In this document: positions 21,432 through 28,590 of the stretch, piece after piece
How positions within the stretch are numbered: the first letter of the stretch is position 1
Layout of the letters: the number at the start of each line of letters is the position of its first letter
Assembly: GCA_963702475.1 (NCBI GenBank)
Contig: CAVPCT010000001.1
Coordinates: 96,001 to 160,000, forward strand
DNA from: an uncultured Thermoleophilia bacterium
GTDB lineage: Bacteria; Actinomycetota; Thermoleophilia; UBA2241
DNA length: 64,000 nt
Direction of reading: 5' to 3'
Translations under genes and position numbers: made by a program
The notes under the pieces: model-generated
Seen by the model: only the letters and a program-made list of their open reading frames with translations
Told to the model about the DNA's origin: nothing
Database searches by the model: none

Positions 21432-22268
21432 TCAGAACGCCATGCGGTAGGTGTTGGGCCACTGGCCCGGGCCCATGCCCTTGCTCAGCGCCAGCGCGGT
21501 GGCGCGGATCTGCGCCCAGCCGTCGTAGATGCTCTCGTGCCGCCACGGGTTCCAGTGGCGTGCCCACTCGCTGTGCGTGTACTGGAAGAGGCCGTTGTAG
21601 ATGCCGCCCACGACTCGGGGGTTCCCGCCGGATTCCAGCATCATCATGCGATACAAGCCGCCGGGGTCCACGCCGTACTTCTCGCCGGCGATACGGATGA
21701 GCGGGCGCCAGGTGTGGGTCCTCGCCCAGCGCGCGATCTGCTCGCGACGGTGGATGCGGTCCGTCAGGCGCTCGAGCTTGTCCGTCCAGCGTTGCACCTG
21801 ACGTCTGGTCGTCGCGACACGCGTCTGCAGGGCGGACAGTTCGTCGGATGTGACCACGCCGTCGGCGAGCAGGCGCTCGGCGAGCGCCGGATCCATGCCC
21901 GCCGGCACCACGCCGGCCGGCGCTGCGGGTGCACCTGCGGACGGAGTGGGCGTGGCTGACGGAGCAGGTGGGGTAGCGGAAGGCGTCGGCGTGGCGGCCG
22001 GCGCTGAGGGTGCGGCGCTCGCCTCGGGCGAAGAGCCGGCGCCTTGACGGGCCGCGATCTCGCGGGCGGCGGCGAGGTCGGCAGCCGCGTCGCGGGCGCG
22101 TTCTCGCGCCTGGGAGAGGTGGCTGCGGACGCTGGCCCGCTCCTGTCGGAGCTGTGCGGTGGTGGGGGCGGTGACGGTGGCGGCGGAGGCCGCTGGGGCG
22201 AGGGTGGCGGCGGCCGTCAAGGCGACGACGGCCAGGGCGGTGAGGGTGAGAGCTGTCCTGCGATACAC
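21432..22268 (-). CDS. Secreted lytic transglycosylase (SLT/Rpf-like C-terminal domain, Pro/Ala/Thr linker, coiled coil)
   Basis: Signal peptide ending AASA; KYGVD...[10 protein letters not shown] (catalytic Glu), GLFQY, GQWP. Confidence 0.8.
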
Positions 22269-22621
22269 GGTGTCCCTTCGACGGGGTTCCCCAGCGGGCA
22301 GCGGCTCGGCCTGTACCCGGCGGGCTGGCGCGACACGCGGGCGCGCCTCGCCCGTACGGCGTGACCGTCACACACAAGAAGGGGGACGAATCTGCGGGGG
22401 GAGGGACGCGCGGGGCGTCGCGATCTCTGAGATCCGTGGCCCAGTCAACCGTGTTCGCGTCCGCACTGCAACCCGGCTGGTGCGTACGGCTTCGGTCGAA
22501 CGGGCAGCCAGATGGGGATCGCCACAGTGGGAAGCGGCGCTCGACGGCGCCGAACGGGGACGCGCTCCTGGCCTGTAGACTTGACCTCAGCATCAGCCCC
22601 CCGACAGGAGAGGAGCCGACC

Positions 22622-23197
22622 ATGCCGAGCTTGAAGGGCAGCGAGACCGAGAAGAACCTGCTGAAGGCGTTCGCCGGCGAGAGCCAGGCGCGCAACCGGT
22701 ATACATTCTTCGCCAAGGCGGCCGTCAAGGAGGGGTACGAGCAGATCGGCGCCCTCTTCCTCGAGACGGCCGAGAACGAGGCCCAGCACGCCAAGGTGTT
22801 CTTCAAGCACCTCGAGGGCGGGCCGGTGGAGATCACCGCCACCTATCCGGCCGGGGTCATCGGGGCGACGACGGAGAACCTGGCGGCCGCGGCCGACGGG
22901 GAGAACGAGGAGTGGACGCAGCTGTACCCGGCGTTCGCCGACGTGGCCGAGGCCGAAGGCTTCACGGCCGTCGCGACCTCGTTCCGGCAGATCGCCAAGG
23001 TCGAGGCCAAGCACGAGCAGCGCTACCGCAAGCTGCTGGCCAACATCGAGCGCGGCCACGTGTTTGAGAAGGCCGACCCGGTCAGCTGGGTCTGCCGCAA
23101 GTGCGGTTACGTGCACCAGGGAACGAAGGCGCCCAAGGTGTGCCCCGCCTGCCAGCACCCGCAGGCCTACTTCGAGGTGTACGCCGAGAACTACTGA
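22622..23197 (+). CDS. rbr: Rubrerythrin
   Basis: [34 protein letters not shown]; rubredoxin domain CRKCG...CPACQHP; RBS AGGAG. Confidence 0.95.
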
Positions 23198-23680
23198 GCC
23201 GGCAACGGCACGCCCGTGTGCGGCGGGCCCGCCGGCGAAAGGGTTGACGCTGCAGGCGCCGAGAACCGTCGCCATGAGCACGAGCGCGCAGAGCGCCCCC
23301 AGCGCCGCGCTCCCGCGCGACCGGATCGGCGCCCTCCCTGCCGTTCCGCGTGTGACGTCCCTCCAGCCGCCCACGGCGCGCCTCCCCGACGGTCCCCGTG
23401 CCGCGTTACCTCGGGGTTCCCCGCGTGGCCCCCGCGGCACCGTTCGGGCGCCACGGCGGGACGGTGGAGGCGGCGGGGGGGTGGAAGCGGCGGTGGGACG
23501 GCAGGGCCTGACTCGGCCGTCGGCAGGACAACGTGAGTACGCATGCGTCGAGCGCGGCAGGCGGCGTGCCCATTGAACGAGGCGGCGAGCCCCCGGAGGT
23601 CCTGAGGGCTCGCCACGTTCCAGCCGAGCGGCTCGGTCGGCGCGCCGGCCGCCGGCCGGGCGGCGCGCCTCGGCGGTAGG

Positions 23681-24487
23681 CTACTCGAGCACCACGAGGG
23701 CGTCGGCCGTGAGCTCGTACTCCTCGTCCTCGTTGAGGTCGTGCACACGGATGCGCTCGAGCTCGCCCTCGCCCTTGAGCTCGAGCGGCTGCGCCTCCGT
23801 GAGCAGCTTCACGTCGGAGAGACGCAGGGCCGAGCGCACGGCGCTGCTCACGCTCGGCTCCTTGCCGGTGGTCATGAGCACCACGCGGCCGGTGTGGTCG
23901 GTGAGGTCGATGGCGACCTGCGCAGACGCGTCGCCGGTGTCCAGCACCACCACGCGTTGGCCGGCCAGCTCGGAGAGGTCGGCCAGCTTCGTGTACACGC
24001 CCTTGCCCTCGTAGTCGGCGAGATTGCTGATCTCGACCTCGACGACCGCGGCGGGCCTGGGGTGGCAGCTCTTCTCGACGGGCGTCGTGGTGGCGTCCTC
24101 GGGCTTGACGCCCTCGCGCCAGTTCTTGATGGCCTCGTGCAGGGCGTCGGCTGCCAGGTTGCTGCAGTGCATCTTGATGGGCGGCAGGCCGTCGAGCGCG
24201 TCGGCCACGTCGCCGCGCGACACCTTGAGCGCTTCGTCGAGCTTCATGCCCACCACGAGCTCGGTGACCATGCTCGAGGTCGCGACCGCAGACCCGCAGC
24301 CGAAGGTCTGGAACTTGATGTCCTCGATGCGGTCGTCGGGGGTGACCTTGATGTAGATGTCCATCATGTCGCCGCACACGGGGTTGCCGACGCGGCCGAC
24401 GGCGACGTTCTCGCCCTCCAGCGTGCCGACGTTGCGCGGGTTGCGGAAGTGCTCGAGTGTCTTCTCGCTGTACTGGGTCGATTTCAT
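23681..24487 (-). CDS. iscU: IscU/NifU-N Fe-S scaffold fused to a degenerate thioredoxin-reductase NADP(H)-binding-like domain
   Basis: YSEKTLEHFRNPRNVG, GNPVCGD, FGCGSA, KMHCSNLA; C-terminal ~120 aa YEGKGVY...AGQRVVVLDTGDASAQVAIDL...RVVL...ELTADALVV. Confidence 0.85.
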   Translation of the reverse strand: MKSTQYSEKTLEHFRNPRNVGTLEGENVAVGRVGNPVCGDMMDIYIKVTPDDRIEDIKFQTFGCGSAVATSSMVTELVVGMKLDEALKVSRGDVADALDGLPPIKMHCSNLAADALHEAIKNWREGVKPEDATTTPVEKSCHPRPAAVVEVEISNLADYEGKGVYTKLADLSELAGQRVVVLDTGDASAQVAIDLTDHTGRVVLMTTGKEPSVSSAVRSALRLSDVKLLTEAQPLELKGEGELERIRVHDLNEDEEYELTADALVVLE

Positions 24488-24527
24488 CAGTCGTGCCTCT
24501 CGCCGGATACGGTGGGGACGCCGCCGG

Positions 24528-25715
24528 TCACACCGGGGACGTCGTGTGGTACAGGGGGCTCAGGGCGCGCAGCCGCTGGATGACCGGCGGGAGCGCCTCC
24601 ATGATGCGCTCCACGTCCGCGTCGGTGCTGAAGCGCCCGAAGGTGAACTCCAGGGAGCCGTGCGCCTCCTCGTGCAGCAAGCCGCAGGAGATGAGGGTGT
24701 GCGACGGCTCCAGGGTCTTGGAGCTGCAGGCCGAGCCGGTCGCCGCCGCGACGCCGAGGTCGCGCAGCGACAGCACCATGGCCTCGCCCTCCACGCCCTC
24801 GAAGCGGAAGTGGGCGTTGTTGGGCAGGCGCCCGTCCGGCGGGTCGAGGGGGGCGCCGTTGAGGTGCGAGTCAGGTATCTCGGCGAGCACGCGCTGCACG
24901 AGGCGGTCGCGGATGGCGCGGATGCGCTCGACCTCGGCCGGCTGCTCCGCCGTCATGATGTCCGCGGCGGCGGCGAAGCCTGCGATGGACGCCAGGTCCT
25001 CAGTGCCCGAGCGCAGGCCGCGCTCCTGGCCTCCGCCGAGCAGCACGGGGGCGACTTGCACGCCCGAGCGCACGTACAGGGCGCCGACGCCGCGCGGGCC
25101 GTAGAGCTCGTTGGCCGACAGGCTCATCAAACTGACGGGCACGGCCCGCATGTCGATGGGCACGAGACCCTCCGCGGCGACCGCGTCGGTGTGCAGCGCC
25201 ACGCCGGTGCCGTCGAGCATCTCGGCGATCTCGCGGATGGGCTGCACGGTGCCGATCTCGTTGCTCGCCCAGCCGACGCTGACGAGGATGGTCTCGTCGG
25301 TGATGCGCGCGCGCAGCTTCTTGCACGACACGCGCCCGTACAGGTCGATGGGCGCGCGGGTGACCTTGAAGCCGCTCTTCTCGAGGTACTTGGCGATGTT
25401 CAGCACCGAGATGTGCTCGGCCTCGGTGATGATCACGTGATCGCCCTTGCGGCGGTTGCGCTGGGCGTAGCCGATCAGCGCGATGTTGGTCGCCTCCGTG
25501 GCCCCGGACGTGAAGACGATCTCGCGCGGCTCCGCGCCGAAGTACGCGGCGACGCGGCCGCGCGCGTCCTCCAGCGCGGACGTGGCCTCGTCGCCGACGG
25601 CGTGCAGCGAGGCGGCGTTGCCGAACGCCGAGCCGCCGAAGTACGGCAGCATGGCGTCCACGACGCGCGGGTCGACCGGACGCGACGACTGGTAGTCGGC
25701 GTACGCGACGTCCAT
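24528..25715 (-). CDS. iscS: IscS/NifS-like class V PLP-fold protein lacking the Schiff-base lysine
   Basis: FGNAASLH, FTSGATEA, EH, NEIGTVQP, GGGQERGLRSGT, GSACSS (Cys retained), but SANELYGP replaces SxHKxYGP; TGATG overlap with dsrE. Confidence 0.88.
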   Translation of the reverse strand: MDVAYADYQSSRPVDPRVVDAMLPYFGGSAFGNAASLHAVGDEATSALEDARGRVAAYFGAEPREIVFTSGATEATNIALIGYAQRNRRKGDHVIITEAEHISVLNIAKYLEKSGFKVTRAPIDLYGRVSCKKLRARITDETILVSVGWASNEIGTVQPIREIAEMLDGTGVALHTDAVAAEGLVPIDMRAVPVSLMSLSANELYGPRGVGALYVRSGVQVAPVLLGGGQERGLRSGTEDLASIAGFAAAADIMTAEQPAEVERIRAIRDRLVQRVLAEIPDSHLNGAPLDPPDGRLPNNAHFRFEGVEGEAMVLSLRDLGVAAATGSACSSKTLEPSHTLISCGLLHEEAHGSLEFTFGRFSTDADVERIMEALPPVIQRLRALSPLYHTTSPV

Positions 25716-26077
25716 CAGAAGTACATGGTCGCGCCGGCGTCGAGCACCAGGTCGTTGAGCGTTGCCGCTCCGACGATCTTGACGCCGTCGATGAGCTCGA
25801 CGGCCTCCCACCCGAGCATCTGCTTGGAGGCCTCGCACACGTAGATGGTGACGCCCATCTCGATGGTCTTCTGGAGCATCTCGGCGACGCTCGGGAAGCT
25901 GCCCAGCTGCATCTCCTCGGCGGCGCCCGGCTTGAGCACCGTGAGGCCCATCCCGAGGTAGTACACCGCGGCGTCCAGGCCCATGGCCCTGGCGCTCTGC
26001 GCGAGGACGAGCGGGGAGTACTGCCGTTCGGGGGCGTTGCTCGTCTGCACGTAGAGGATCATGTTCTCGTTCTTCAT
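25715..26077 (-). CDS. DsrE/DsrF family protein
   Basis: PL.LA..A.AMG...VYY.G.G...LK, GVTIYVCEAS (conserved Cys), GAATL; RBS AAGGGAG. Confidence 0.8.
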   Translation of the reverse strand: MKNENMILYVQTSNAPERQYSPLVLAQSARAMGLDAAVYYLGMGLTVLKPGAAEEMQLGSFPSVAEMLQKTIEMGVTIYVCEASKQMLGWEAVELIDGVKIVGAATLNDLVLDAGATMYF

Positions 26078-26098
26078 GGTCGGCTCCCTTTCACGTGG

Positions 26099-26338
26099 TC
26101 ACTTGAGTCTGCGGATGAGGATGCGGAGCTGATCGCCCTCGTGCTCGACGCCCACGACCTCGTGCCCGGCGCGTTTGGCGAACCGCGTGAGGTCCTCCTC
26201 GGCGGCGGGGTCGTCGGCGAACACCTCGAGGACCTCCCCGATCGCGACTGAGTCCACTGCCTCCCTCGTCTGGAACAGCGGCTCGGGGCAGTACAGCCCG
26301 AGGCAGTCGAGGGTCTGTACGGGCGTCTGATCGCTCAT
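26099..26338 (-). CDS. tusA: TusA/SirA family sulfur carrier protein
   Basis: LDCLGLYCPEP (CPxP), LEV.ADDPAA..DL..FA...GHE; RBS AAGGAG. Confidence 0.9.
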   Translation of the reverse strand: MSDQTPVQTLDCLGLYCPEPLFQTREAVDSVAIGEVLEVFADDPAAEEDLTRFAKRAGHEVVGVEHEGDQLRILIRRLK

Positions 26339-26630
26339 GCCGTGCTCCTTCGGGGATGTAGATACCCAACCACCGGAGTCGGTATTCCCACCGGACCCCC
26401 AGTCGATACCTGTGCCGGGGCGCGGTGCGCCGGCTGAGGGCGGCCGCCGCGCCGCGTGGGACGTCCGGACGGCTGAACCAGGAACCGGCGCGCCCCCCGC
26501 GGCGGGCCTGGCTCCGGCGCGGGCAGGGTTCGCGGGCCGCGGCGCGAAGCCGTAGCGGCCCGTCGTCGCGGCGGGTGCGCCGCCGCGGGCACGCTCAGGC
26601 ATCGCGGCGGCCCGTCGATACACTTCGGGG

Positions 26631-27692
26631 ATGGATGTGCGCGGACACAAGCTGCAGACCCTTACGACGTTCGTCGTGCTCGCTTGCCTGGCCGGGGGCG
26701 TGCTGGCCCTCGGGCGCGCCGCGCCGGCGGGGGCGGCCCTGCGGGCCGCCGGCTCCGGCGTCGGCGTCCGCGTGGACGCCGTCCCGTCGCTGCAGAAGCT
26801 GCAGAACGAGGCCAAGGCCACGCGCGCCCAGATGCAGCGGCTGGGCGCCGAGCAGGAGGCCATCATCCAGAGGTGCAACGAGGCGCAGCAGCGTCTCGAC
26901 GAGGTGAGCGCCGAGCTCGTGACGGCGCGCCGCGACCTGGCGCGCAAGCGCAAGGAGCTGGACGAGCAGCGCACGTTGGTGGCCGGCCGCATGAAGACGA
27001 TGTACAAGGCCGGCCAGTACACCTGGCTGGACATCGCGACCTCGGCGTCCAGCCTCGCCGAGGCCGAGACGGTGATGGACTTCCTGCGCAGGATCTCCCT
27101 CCTGGACAGGCACGAGGAGACCGAGCTGCAGAGGCTCACCGGCCAGGCGCGCAAGCTCGAGCACGACGTGGAGGCCGACCGCAAGAAGGCGGTCACGGCC
27201 CAGGTGGACCTCGACGACCAGCGCGCCCAGCTGGAGGCCAAGATCGCCCAGCGCGCCACCGTCCTCAAGGACCTGGTGACGCGCATCAAGAAGATCCTGT
27301 CCGCGCCGCTGCTTCTCATGAAGGCCGGCGGCAAGGTGACCCAGGTCACCTGGGCCCAGGCCGTGCTCAAGAGCCTGGGCATGCCCATCACGGCCGACAA
27401 CGTGGCCGCCGTGGTGGCCTGGGAGATGGCCGAGGGCGGGCACTGGTACAACACCGCGTACTACAACCCGCTGAACACCACCCAGTCCATGCCGGGGGCG
27501 ACCATCTTCAACTCGGTCGGCGTCAAGGCGTACACCAGCTGGGAGCAGGGCCTCAAGGCCACCGTGATCACGCTGCACAACGGCTACTACGGCGGCATCC
27601 TCGAGGCGCTCAGCCGTGGCAACGACGCCCAGGCAGTGGCCGATGCGGTGGCGGCCTCGCCCTGGGGCACCGGCTCGTTCGACCCACGGTGA
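26631..27692 (+). CDS. Secreted PcsB/CwlO-type coiled-coil protein with C-terminal lysozyme-like (putative peptidoglycan-lytic) domain
   Basis: Signal peptide; long coiled coil with MYKAG motif; AWEMAEGG...YNPLNTTQ...GVKAY.SW..G; TACACT-N6-ATG leaderless start. Confidence 0.7.
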   Translation: MDVRGHKLQTLTTFVVLACLAGGVLALGRAAPAGAALRAAGSGVGVRVDAVPSLQKLQNEAKATRAQMQRLGAEQEAIIQRCNEAQQRLDEVSAELVTARRDLARKRKELDEQRTLVAGRMKTMYKAGQYTWLDIATSASSLAEAETVMDFLRRISLLDRHEETELQRLTGQARKLEHDVEADRKKAVTAQVDLDDQRAQLEAKIAQRATVLKDLVTRIKKILSAPLLLMKAGGKVTQVTWAQAVLKSLGMPITADNVAAVVAWEMAEGGHWYNTAYYNPLNTTQSMPGATIFNSVGVKAYTSWEQGLKATVITLHNGYYGGILEALSRGNDAQAVADAVAASPWGTGSFDPR

Positions 27693-27705
27693 CGGGTCGC
27701 GCCCG

Positions 27706-28590
27706 GTGAGTGTCCCCGCAGCCGGCGCGCGCGGCGCCTCGGGACGCGCCGTTCTCATCGTCGTCGTCATCGCCCTGTCGTTCCAGCTGGGCTCGGCGCT
27801 GGCGGTCAAGGTCATCGAGTCGGTCGGCGCCGTGGAGGCTCTGTGGCTGCGCACAGCCATCGCCGCCGCGATCCTCGCCTGCATCCGCCCGCGGACGCTG
27901 CGCCTGCCTCCGCGCGGCCGGCGCCTGCGGCTGGTCGCGCTCACCCTGGCGCTGCTGGGCATGAACGGCAGCTTCTACCTGGCCATCAGTCACGCGCCCG
28001 TGGGCCTCGTGGTCGCCATCGAGTTCACGGGGCCGCTGGTCGTGGCCGTGCTCGGCAGCCGGCGCAGGCTCGACTACCTGTGGATCGCGCTGGCCGGCGC
28101 CGGCGTGGTGGTGCTGGCCGGTCCCACGAGCTCCGTCAGCGCGCTCGGCCTCGGCCTCTCCCTGCTGGCCGCGTTCTTCTGGGGCCTCTACCTCGTGCTG
28201 GCGAAACGCGCCGTCAGCGACATGGACCCGCTCTCGGTGACCACGCTCATGCTCATCGGTTCGGCGGTCCTCATCACGCCGCTGCTGCTCCTGACGGGGC
28301 CGGTCGTCAGCGGGCACGGCACCGCCATCCTCCTCGGCGCCTGTGTCGCCGTCCTCTCCTCGGCCTTCCCCTACGTGCTCGAACTCGTGGGGCTGCGCCT
28401 GGTGAAGGCGTCGACGTGGGGTGTGCTGCTGAGCGTGGAGCCGGCGGTCGCGGGTCTCACCGGCTTCCTGATCCTGGGGCAGACCCTGGCCTGGCTGGAG
28501 ATCGGCGCGATGCTCGCCGTGATGGTCGCGGCCGCCGGCGCCAGCTGGACGAGCGGCGCCGGCGAGGAACTTGAGGTCCCGACCGGCTGA
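27706..28590 (+). CDS. EamA/DMT transporter (RhtA-like)
   Basis: About 10 TM helices; QLGSALA, MNGSFYLAI, AIEFTGPL, PYVLE, LSVEPA. Confidence 0.88.
   Translation: MSVPAAGARGASGRAVLIVVVIALSFQLGSALAVKVIESVGAVEALWLRTAIAAAILACIRPRTLRLPPRGRRLRLVALTLALLGMNGSFYLAISHAPVGLVVAIEFTGPLVVAVLGSRRRLDYLWIALAGAGVVVLAGPTSSVSALGLGLSLLAAFFWGLYLVLAKRAVSDMDPLSVTTLMLIGSAVLITPLLLLTGPVVSGHGTAILLGACVAVLSSAFPYVLELVGLRLVKASTWGVLLSVEPAVAGLTGFLILGQTLAWLEIGAMLAVMVAAAGASWTSGAGEELEVPTG

Follow-up and report, generated by a model that had tools for sequence, protein, structure and literature searches.

A conserved tusA-dsrE-iscS*-iscU operon suggests a sulfur route for lysine-less IscS-IscU pairs

Introduction

Where does an IscU scaffold for iron-sulfur (Fe-S) clusters get its sulfur when the IscS encoded beside it lacks the catalytic lysine? 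The question is raised by a four-gene operon, tusA-dsrE-iscS*-iscU, in a stretch of 64,000 nucleotides (the window) from contig CAVPCT010000001.1 of an uncultured Thermoleophilia bacterium of soil or sediment; iscS* stands here for an IscS/NifS-type gene whose product has no lysine for pyridoxal phosphate (PLP). We found that the four genes make up a unit which recurs in Bacteria and Archaea, that the lysine-less IscS proteins form a single clade with a fixed set of active-site replacements, and that the operon of the window carries the same operator as the housekeeping Rrf2-nifS-iscU operon of its genome. These findings suggest where a lysine-less IscS-IscU pair, known from Archaeoglobus fulgidus, gets its sulfur.

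The operon and its lysine-less IscS

The four genes were assigned to families by Pfam and NCBIfam profile searches. They lie on the minus strand in the order tusA-dsrE-iscS*-iscU (window 23681-26338), with an operator in front of tusA:

26362-26386, minus strand: 25-bp operator AATACCGACTCCGGTGGTTGGGTAT, 23 nt 5' of the tusA start codon
26099-26338, minus strand: tusA, 79 amino acids; PF01206 (E 1.9e-24); motif LDCLGLYCPEP
25715-26077, minus strand: dsrE-like gene, 120 amino acids; PF02635 (E 2.3e-15) and PF13686 (E 1e-14); single conserved Cys81
24528-25715, minus strand: iscS*, 395 amino acids; PF00266 (E 1.2e-63); IscS/NifS type without the PLP lysine
23681-24487, minus strand: iscU, whole gene, 268 amino acids; NifU_N (E 3.6e-46) over residues 5-125
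24086-24487, minus strand: iscU scaffold domain, residues 1-134; Cys38, Asp40, Cys64, His107, Cys108
23681-24049, minus strand: iscU C-terminal domain, residues 147-268 plus the stop codon; thioredoxin reductase (TrxR)-like NAD(P)H-domain fold

The stop codon of dsrE overlaps the start codon of iscS* in the letters TGATG, the gaps are 21 nt between tusA and dsrE and 40 nt between iscS* and iscU, and the G+C content of the window is approximately 70%. A preliminary description, made from the letters alone, had named the same four genes and the overlap, and the profile searches verified all four families at these positions.

Comparison of IscS* with the canonical paralogue of the same genome showed where the active site has changed. 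IscS* reads SANELYGP where the paralogue reads SGHKLYGP, HTDAVAAEG where it reads HTDAVQAAG (Gln to Ala) and GSLEFTFGR where it reads GSLRLSLGR (Arg to Glu), and the GSACSS motif with the mobile-loop Cys330 is intact. We surveyed these columns in 81 sequences, namely IscS* and 80 relatives. The PLP-lysine column was Asp in 80/81 and Glu in 1/81, the preceding His column was Asn in 81/81, the Gln column was Ala in 81/81, the Arg column was Glu in 76/79 and Gln in the other 3/79, and the loop Cys330 was retained in 80/80. The lysine column was fixed by alignment with PDB sequences, where A. fulgidus IscS2 (4EB5) reads SSND and its D199K variant (4R5F) reads SSNK in the same columns, and it was also set by 24 His-Lys homologues. 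Asn-Glu thus replaces His-Lys in IscS*, and the earlier view that the PLP lysine is lost and the mobile-loop cysteine kept was borne out. All nine of the nearest database relatives of IscS* (87-95% identical) also read NE, so the Glu of the window is the mark of a sub-lineage and not an assembly error.

In the profile searches IscS* matched the NifS, IscS and DndA models with E values from 1e-94 to 1e-130 but reached none of the curated cut-offs; for NCBIfam NifS the score was 433 bits against a cut-off of 530.75, and that of the canonical NifS of the genome was 526.6. IscS* is a protein of the class V aminotransferase fold with IscS/NifS-level similarity and the GSAC cysteine, but without the lysine of Ser-x-His-Lys; the acidic residue at the Lys position and the Asn at the preceding His are those of the A. 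fulgidus type.

Conservation and phylogeny of the module

Database searches confirmed 152 relatives of IscS*, and the best 80 of the 152 (58-86% identity) were analysed for neighbours by tblastn. These best 80 loci had tusA in 77/80, dsrE in 76/80, the IscU scaffold in 79/80 and the IscU C-terminal domain in 76/80. When only loci with the relevant flank were counted, tusA was present in 77/77 and dsrE in 76/77 of those with upstream sequence, and iscU in 79/79 of those with downstream sequence. Order and strand were identical in all loci, and the misses fall at contig or locus ends, with the exception of locus L033. Conservation of the neighbourhood among homologues had been set beforehand as one of the points on which the system would stand or fall, and the neighbourhood is conserved, in Archaea as well: dsrE adjoins the lysine-less IscS in 10/10 of the archaeal loci sampled, and tusA lies upstream in 9/10.

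The nearest relatives come from metagenome-assembled genomes (MAGs) labelled Thermoleophilia, and the labelled taxa as a whole are Thermoleophilia, Coriobacteriia, Gaiellales, Deltaproteobacteria, Syntrophus, Smithella, Thermodesulfobacteriota, Zixibacteria, WOR-3 and one Thermoplasmata archaeon. The DsrE type of the module was found in only 8 of 401 sampled genomes of the window's own phylum, which means that the distribution is patchy. For the archaeal phylum of the module-bearing MAG the figure was 24 of 201 genomes; ribosomal protein S4e was present in 5/5 genomes tested of this phylum, and among the controls only in the four archaea.

A quick IQ-TREE analysis was run on 49 IscS-type rows, from which rows with fewer than 330 aligned residues and exact duplicates had been dropped and in which the A. 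fulgidus sequence was absent. The 25 lysine-less rows fell on one side of a branch with a Shimodaira-Hasegawa-like approximate likelihood ratio test (SH-aLRT) value of 99, and the 24 His-Lys rows from the same genomes fell on the other. An archaeal row was nested among Syntrophobacterales and Smithella rows within the lysine-less clade, which points to horizontal transfer.

Since IscS* is a paralogue of the canonical enzyme in the same genome and has lost catalytic residues, the operon might be taken for a decaying, functionless duplicate of nifS-iscU. However, the replacements are themselves conserved (Asn 81/81, Asp or Glu 81/81), and identities of 58-86% across phyla, intact frames, translational coupling, a conserved operator and a clade that spans Bacteria and Archaea all argue against decay. 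We rejected this explanation on the conservation data and give it next to no chance.

Several genomes of the genus have at least two module copies, each with its own operator (L038/L040, L028/L052, L055/L062; G417, G403, G415).

An operator shared with Rrf2-nifS-iscU

Alignment of the upstream regions of Thermoleophilia loci showed that the operator is an imperfect palindrome, AATNCCRAC-N7-GTYGGG(TAT/ATT), just 5' of the tusA ribosome-binding site. It occurred without mismatch in 32 of 74 related loci, all of Thermoleophilia type, and with 1-3 mismatches in 9 more; none was seen in the distant lineages among these 74 loci. A search of the 4.3-Mb genome with the pattern AATNCCRACNNNNNNNGTYGGGWWT gave exactly 3 sites, and the reversed pattern, used as a control, gave 0. 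One site is that 5' of tusA, another lies directly 5' of the Rrf2 gene of nifS-iscU, and the third is 5' of a hemerythrin-domain gene with the architecture DUF1858-DUF438-hemerythrin and a PAS_10 end. This gene (L093 1512-3016; G000:C5, ~585.4-587.0 kb) has its PAS_10 part in another frame, which is due to a frameshift or an assembly error.

The same sites recur throughout the genus. TAT-type sites were found in 18/18 genomes, and the 30 loci with such a site had it 5' of tusA in 18 cases, 5' of the hemerythrin gene in 11 and, in 1 locus of another genus, before neither. ATT-type sites were found in 17/21 genomes, and 19/19 of these sites lay 5' of Rrf2-nifS. The core GAC-N7-GTC and the length of 25 bp presumably resemble those of the IscR type 1 site of E. 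coli.

The module thus shares its operator with an Rrf2-headed Fe-S biogenesis operon, as the members of an IscR (Rrf2) regulon do, and this is what places it in Fe-S homeostasis. The Rrf2 regulator of the housekeeping operon probably controls the module too, and the operator is independent evidence that the module serves Fe-S homeostasis rather than the sulfur metabolism of energy conservation. A CsoR/CstR operator was also considered from the ends ATACC...GGTAT, but it was set aside as less likely because the same type of site stands 5' of Rrf2-nifS in 19/19 cases.

Sulfur carriers and coexisting desulfurases

Both carriers keep the residues on which persulfide transfer would depend. TusA Cys12, the CPxP cysteine Cys17 and the CPEP motif were retained in 76/76 sequences, and Cys81 of the DsrE-like protein, which is 64-91% identical across phyla, was retained in 77/77; we take the invariance of the carrier cysteines as a sign of selection on TusA and DsrE. 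TusA scored 57 bits against the NCBIfam TusA equivalog, below the cut-off of 78, and its top PDB match was E. coli TusA/YhhP (E 1.1e-13). That of the DsrE-like protein was 3MC3, a DsrE/DsrF-like family protein (E 7e-11), and the IscS-TusA complex 3LVJ was among the PDB matches of both IscS* and TusA. The module accordingly encodes a TusA fold with Cys-Pro-x-Pro and a DsrE fold with an active-site cysteine, and it has a single DsrE-family gene, not the three-subunit set of DsrEFH or TusBCD. The E. coli relay starts from an active IscS, which hands sulfur to TusA, and a TusBCD heterohexamer then conveys it to tRNA. The module has the three families IscS, TusA and DsrE/TusD in common with this relay but differs in that its IscS* is predicted to be inactive, in that it has one DsrE-family gene and in that the partner is IscU.

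The preliminary description had called the system desulfurase-independent and had proposed a check of the genome for other IscS, SufS and SufBC(D) genes. This check showed that the same genome contains a canonical Rrf2-nifS-iscU operon, the NifS of which has SGHK. It also contains a desulfurase-like gene of VC1184 type, which is divided between two frames, and a gene pair made up of SufC and a weak SufB/D/SmsB-like match. At least one His-Lys class V homologue (E <= 1e-30) was also found in 10/10 other module-bearing genomes, and in 7/10 a His-Lys IscS adjoins IscU within the flank examined. Independence from desulfurases therefore fails at the level of the organism. The split VC1184-type gene (L003 1094-2383; G000:C6, ~93.4-94.7 kb) has overlapping frames that cover model residues 1-285 and 285-401 and is a pseudogene or an assembly error.

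These enzymes offer another source of sulfur: the canonical NifS or another His-Lys enzyme would make persulfide from cysteine, and TusA and DsrE would buffer it and pass it to IscS*-IscU as a second scaffold, with extra or protected capacity at high Fe-S demand. The His-Lys homologues in this genome and in all ten others fit this explanation, and so do the operator common to the module and Rrf2-nifS-iscU and the established E. coli direction, from IscS to TusA. It leaves unexplained, however, why the protein retained the fold of a desulfurase but exchanged four of its catalytic residues, a state conserved across two domains of life, and the carriers are not linked to the His-Lys enzymes themselves. 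Among 25 His-Lys loci of the same genomes, 1 had TusA-like neighbours (L144), 1 had a weak DsrE-like match (L151) and 0 had both, whereas the 10 lysine-less loci had tusA in 10/10 and dsrE in 9/10. We regard supply from cysteine through the carriers as possible but rather unlikely. L144 (G427:C25) encodes a His-Lys class V enzyme that is not of IscS type, with TusA-like genes on either side, in a module-bearing genome; this links a carrier to a desulfurase in another way than the module does.

IscU: an intact scaffold with an additional domain

The scaffold part of IscU is intact. Cys38, Asp40, Cys64 and Cys108 are invariant, and the protein has the cysteines, the Asp and the LPPxK-MHC motif of a scaffold; its score against the NifU_clost model was 179.3 bits, below the cut-off of 187.9. 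Its top PDB matches were the archaeal IscU 7C8M (E 1.1e-49) and A. fulgidus IscU (4EB5_C). The three cysteines and the conserved Asp had been noted before, and IscU as a scaffold stands on these ligands, but the degenerate TrxR-type domain at the C-terminus (residues 147-268) had been overlooked.

An AlphaFold2 model was built from 42 sequences, with a mean predicted local distance difference test (pLDDT) score of 86, mostly 80-95 in the scaffold and approximately 90 in the C-terminal domain. In the model, residues 135-146 form a disordered linker, whose Cys141 is conserved in 71/80 sequences and absent from some lineages. Residues 147-268 match positions 115-231 of the thioredoxin reductase model TIGR01292 (E 8.3e-8), and the top Foldseek match of the modelled domain was 3LZW (E 6.1e-11, root-mean-square deviation (rmsd) 1.8 over 118 columns), with 2ZBW, 3F8R, 2Q7V and AhpF (1HYU) as further matches. 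The fold is that of thioredoxin reductases and TrxR-like ferredoxin-NADP reductases (3LZW, 2ZBW, 3F8R, 2Q7V; rmsd 1.7-2.0 over 118-122 columns), but the FAD domain, GxGxxG, the HRR-type phosphate site and the redox CxxC are absent, a conserved Asp183-x-Gly185 replaces GxG, and the domain is fused to IscU. From this loss of motifs we judged canonical NAD(P)H binding unlikely.

The domain is rare: 69 representatives at E <= 0.001 and 31 at E <= 1e-10 were found among 1.84 billion. We inspected 12 of them, of which 2 were full-length IscU fusions and 6 begin within IscU and are therefore fusions with the N-terminus cut off. The archaeal IscU proteins had the TrxR-like domain in 1/5 cases, and the four others were short (127-149 amino acids), so the domain is not essential to the module. 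The conserved unit is the four-gene core, and the fused IscU domain marks one sub-clade. Three of the four short archaeal IscU proteins (L173, L174 and L176) have a Cys-bearing tail, and two of these tails, which stand in the place of the bacterial TrxR-like domain, are rich in Cys and His in the manner of CxxCxxC.

Neighbouring genes and transcription

The flanks of 27 diverse loci were surveyed by Pfam scans of chosen frames, and no gene beyond the four was conserved across phyla. In the window, a rubrerythrin with a rubredoxin-like end (22616-23197, plus strand; PF02915, E 2.2e-30) is convergent to iscU. Redox and metal-stress genes also lie near the module elsewhere: rubrerythrins, ferritin and glutaredoxin in L064 (WOR-3), AhpC, glutaredoxin and FTR-rubredoxin in L051, and OsmC in L082. 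In four non-actinobacterial loci (L036, L037, L045 and L064) the gene directly 3' of iscU, on the same strand, encodes a copper-type P1B ATPase that has YHS and HMA domains.

These neighbours bear on a role in repair, storage or hand-over of clusters during stress, in which IscS*-IscU would hold a stabilised cluster and TusA and DsrE would accept sulfur from damaged clusters or give it back, together with the di-iron hemerythrin protein. The recurrence of such genes beside the module (the window, L064, L051, L082, L036, L037, L045) and the operator shared with the DUF1858-DUF438-hemerythrin-PAS gene are what this explanation can claim. But most of the 27 loci have flanks of their own, and no stress neighbour is conserved with the module, so we consider it distinctly unlikely.

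Molybdoenzyme genes occur near the module in L080, L085 and L089, and in E. coli TusA and homologues of DsrE/TusD serve tRNA thiolation and molybdenum cofactor synthesis, as stated in the available text of PMC11094781. The module could accordingly relay sulfur to a product other than Fe-S clusters, such as thiolated tRNA, molybdenum cofactor or a different thio-cofactor, and IscS* and IscU would then be persulfide carriers. This is very unlikely in our view, since the cluster ligands of IscU are all invariant, the operator is shared with nifS-iscU, and in the loci that we inspected no gene for a thiolation enzyme, such as MnmA, MoaD or ThiI, is a conserved neighbour of the module.

RNA-library contigs from four runs of four studies were 85-99% identical to all four genes and stem from relatives; none of the RNA runs contained the organism of the window. 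They covered 28 of 30 bins in X16, 11 in X17, 29 in X18 and 29 in X19, where the uncovered operon parts of X17 carry no meaning, and two contigs, one from X16 and one from X19, spanned the iscS*-iscU junction.

Rfam found no RNA families in window 22000-28000, and consensus scans of the locus gave no match to promoters or terminators. A perfect 9-bp inverted repeat of G and C only, with a 13-nt loop, lies at window 23639-23669, 12 nt past the iscU stop; it has no T run, which is why the terminator scan did not list it. Divergent from tusA, at window 26631-27692 on the plus strand, is a gene for a 353-amino-acid protein with a signal-like start and a long coiled-coil-like stretch, for which no significant Pfam family was found. 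A pyridine nucleotide-disulfide oxidoreductase gene lies upstream of the module in L036 and L045.

Comparison with known systems

The closest solved match of IscS* is that of the A. fulgidus IscS2-IscU pair (4EB5, 4EB7, 4HVK; D199K variant 4R5F), at E 6.5e-129. The available text of PMC8918507 and PMC7585200 describes A. fulgidus IscS2 as without desulfurase activity, with its Cys as a cluster ligand; PMC8918507 adds that the inactive protein binds pyridoxamine phosphate (PMP) and donates this Cys to a [2Fe-2S] cluster on IscU. The parallel with A. fulgidus drawn at the outset therefore holds, by best PDB match and by reported inactivity. Like the module, A. fulgidus IscS2 has the Ser-x-Asn-acidic motif, the loop Cys and a standard IscU partner. 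It differs in having Asp at the Lys position, where IscS* of the window has Glu, and its IscU has a crystal chain of 153 residues, whereas that of the window has the extra TrxR-like domain. No sulfur carriers are named for A. fulgidus in the available text of PMC8918507 and PMC7585200, whereas the module has TusA and DsrE; PMC8918507, in the same available part, calls the sulfur source of the IscU cluster an open question and guesses sulfide.

Methanosarcina acetivorans isc1 is a second relative. As far as the available text of PMC7585200 goes, IscS1 (MA0808) lacks the catalytic lysine and IscU1 (MA0807) is enlarged (24.2 kDa), like the module, and the isc1 neighbour genes are given as "of unknown function" and are unnamed in the main text. 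A third comparison is the minimal iron-sulfur system (MIS), MisS-MisU, which in the available part of a 2026 review (PMC13066941) is, like the module, a core of two IscS-IscU-type genes that lacks chaperones, ferredoxin and A-type carriers, and is widespread in anaerobes and archaea; according to the same part, the minimal iron-sulfur cluster (ISC)-type system works without carrier proteins and with electron donors yet to be identified. One difference is that MisS is described as a desulfurase, a function that IscS* is predicted to lack, and another is that the conserved unit of the module includes sulfur carriers, two in number, and the additional domain of IscU.

Thus IscS*-IscU is a variant of a known pair and not a new kind of system. 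Full-text literature searches returned no paper that, judged by title and abstract, deals with the tusA-dsrE-iscS*-iscU arrangement itself, and the earlier statement that no four-gene system of this composition has been characterised holds within that literature, with the limit that subscription papers and supplements may hold more.

Discussion

In the reading that we favour, the chances of which we judge to be about even, IscS*-IscU would be an auxiliary cluster-assembly complex, and TusA and DsrE would carry persulfide sulfur to the loop cysteine of IscS* and to IscU. The module would belong with Archaeoglobus IscS2 and Methanosarcina isc1, and the Rrf2 (IscR-like) regulator of nifS-iscU would control it as well. 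IscS* has kept its fold and its mobile-loop cysteine; instead of working as a cysteine desulfurase, it would be the platform on which IscU docks and would donate the fourth ligand of the cluster. TusA and the DsrE-type protein with its single cysteine would pass persulfide to the loop cysteine of IscS* and then to IscU; we propose this supply because the carriers are encoded directly 5' and dsrE is translationally coupled to iscS*. The sulfur might come from inorganic or sulfane sulfur, the reversed flow suggested in the preliminary description, or be supplied by a different desulfurase in the same cell. As for the degenerate NAD(P)H-type domain of IscU, it would most likely dock a partner rather than bind a nucleotide in the usual way.

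Several points weigh against this reading. Canonical desulfurases stand alongside the module in 11/11 genomes, so it is no needed replacement and its sulfur may still derive from cysteine. The known E. coli direction is from IscS to TusA, not the reverse. In L033 tusA directly abuts iscS* and dsrE is truly absent, and the TrxR-like domain is missing in 4/5 archaeal IscU proteins. The Rrf2 regulator is suggested by the shared motif, and a CsoR-family gene is present in the same genome. The RNA contigs give weak support for transcription, as they come from relatives and may reflect DNA carry-over.

The auxiliary complex could also be extended to a self-contained Fe-S route from sulfide or from sulfane sulfur of environmental or metabolic origin, without cysteine desulfuration. 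Sulfur taken up by DsrE would reach the loop cysteine of IscS* by way of TusA, and the cluster would be built on IscU; the co-regulated di-iron hemerythrin protein would supply iron, and the NAD(P)H-type domain of IscU would recruit reductant. We consider this extension rather unlikely. If it were true, it would show how the ancient minimal ISC-type system obtains sulfur, iron and electrons, a supply that has been missing so far.

The sulfur source of lysine-less IscS-IscU pairs has been open since the A. fulgidus structures, and the available text of PMC8918507 asks how clusters form without a desulfurase. In the loci that we examined, the carriers are linked to the lysine-less pair and hardly ever to active desulfurases, which gives a concrete sulfur route that can be tested. 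The finding should interest those who study Fe-S clusters. Many uncultured anaerobes from soils, sediments and digesters have the module, as do Archaea, and it therefore bears on how Fe-S clusters are made, in the past and at present, where sulfide is plentiful.

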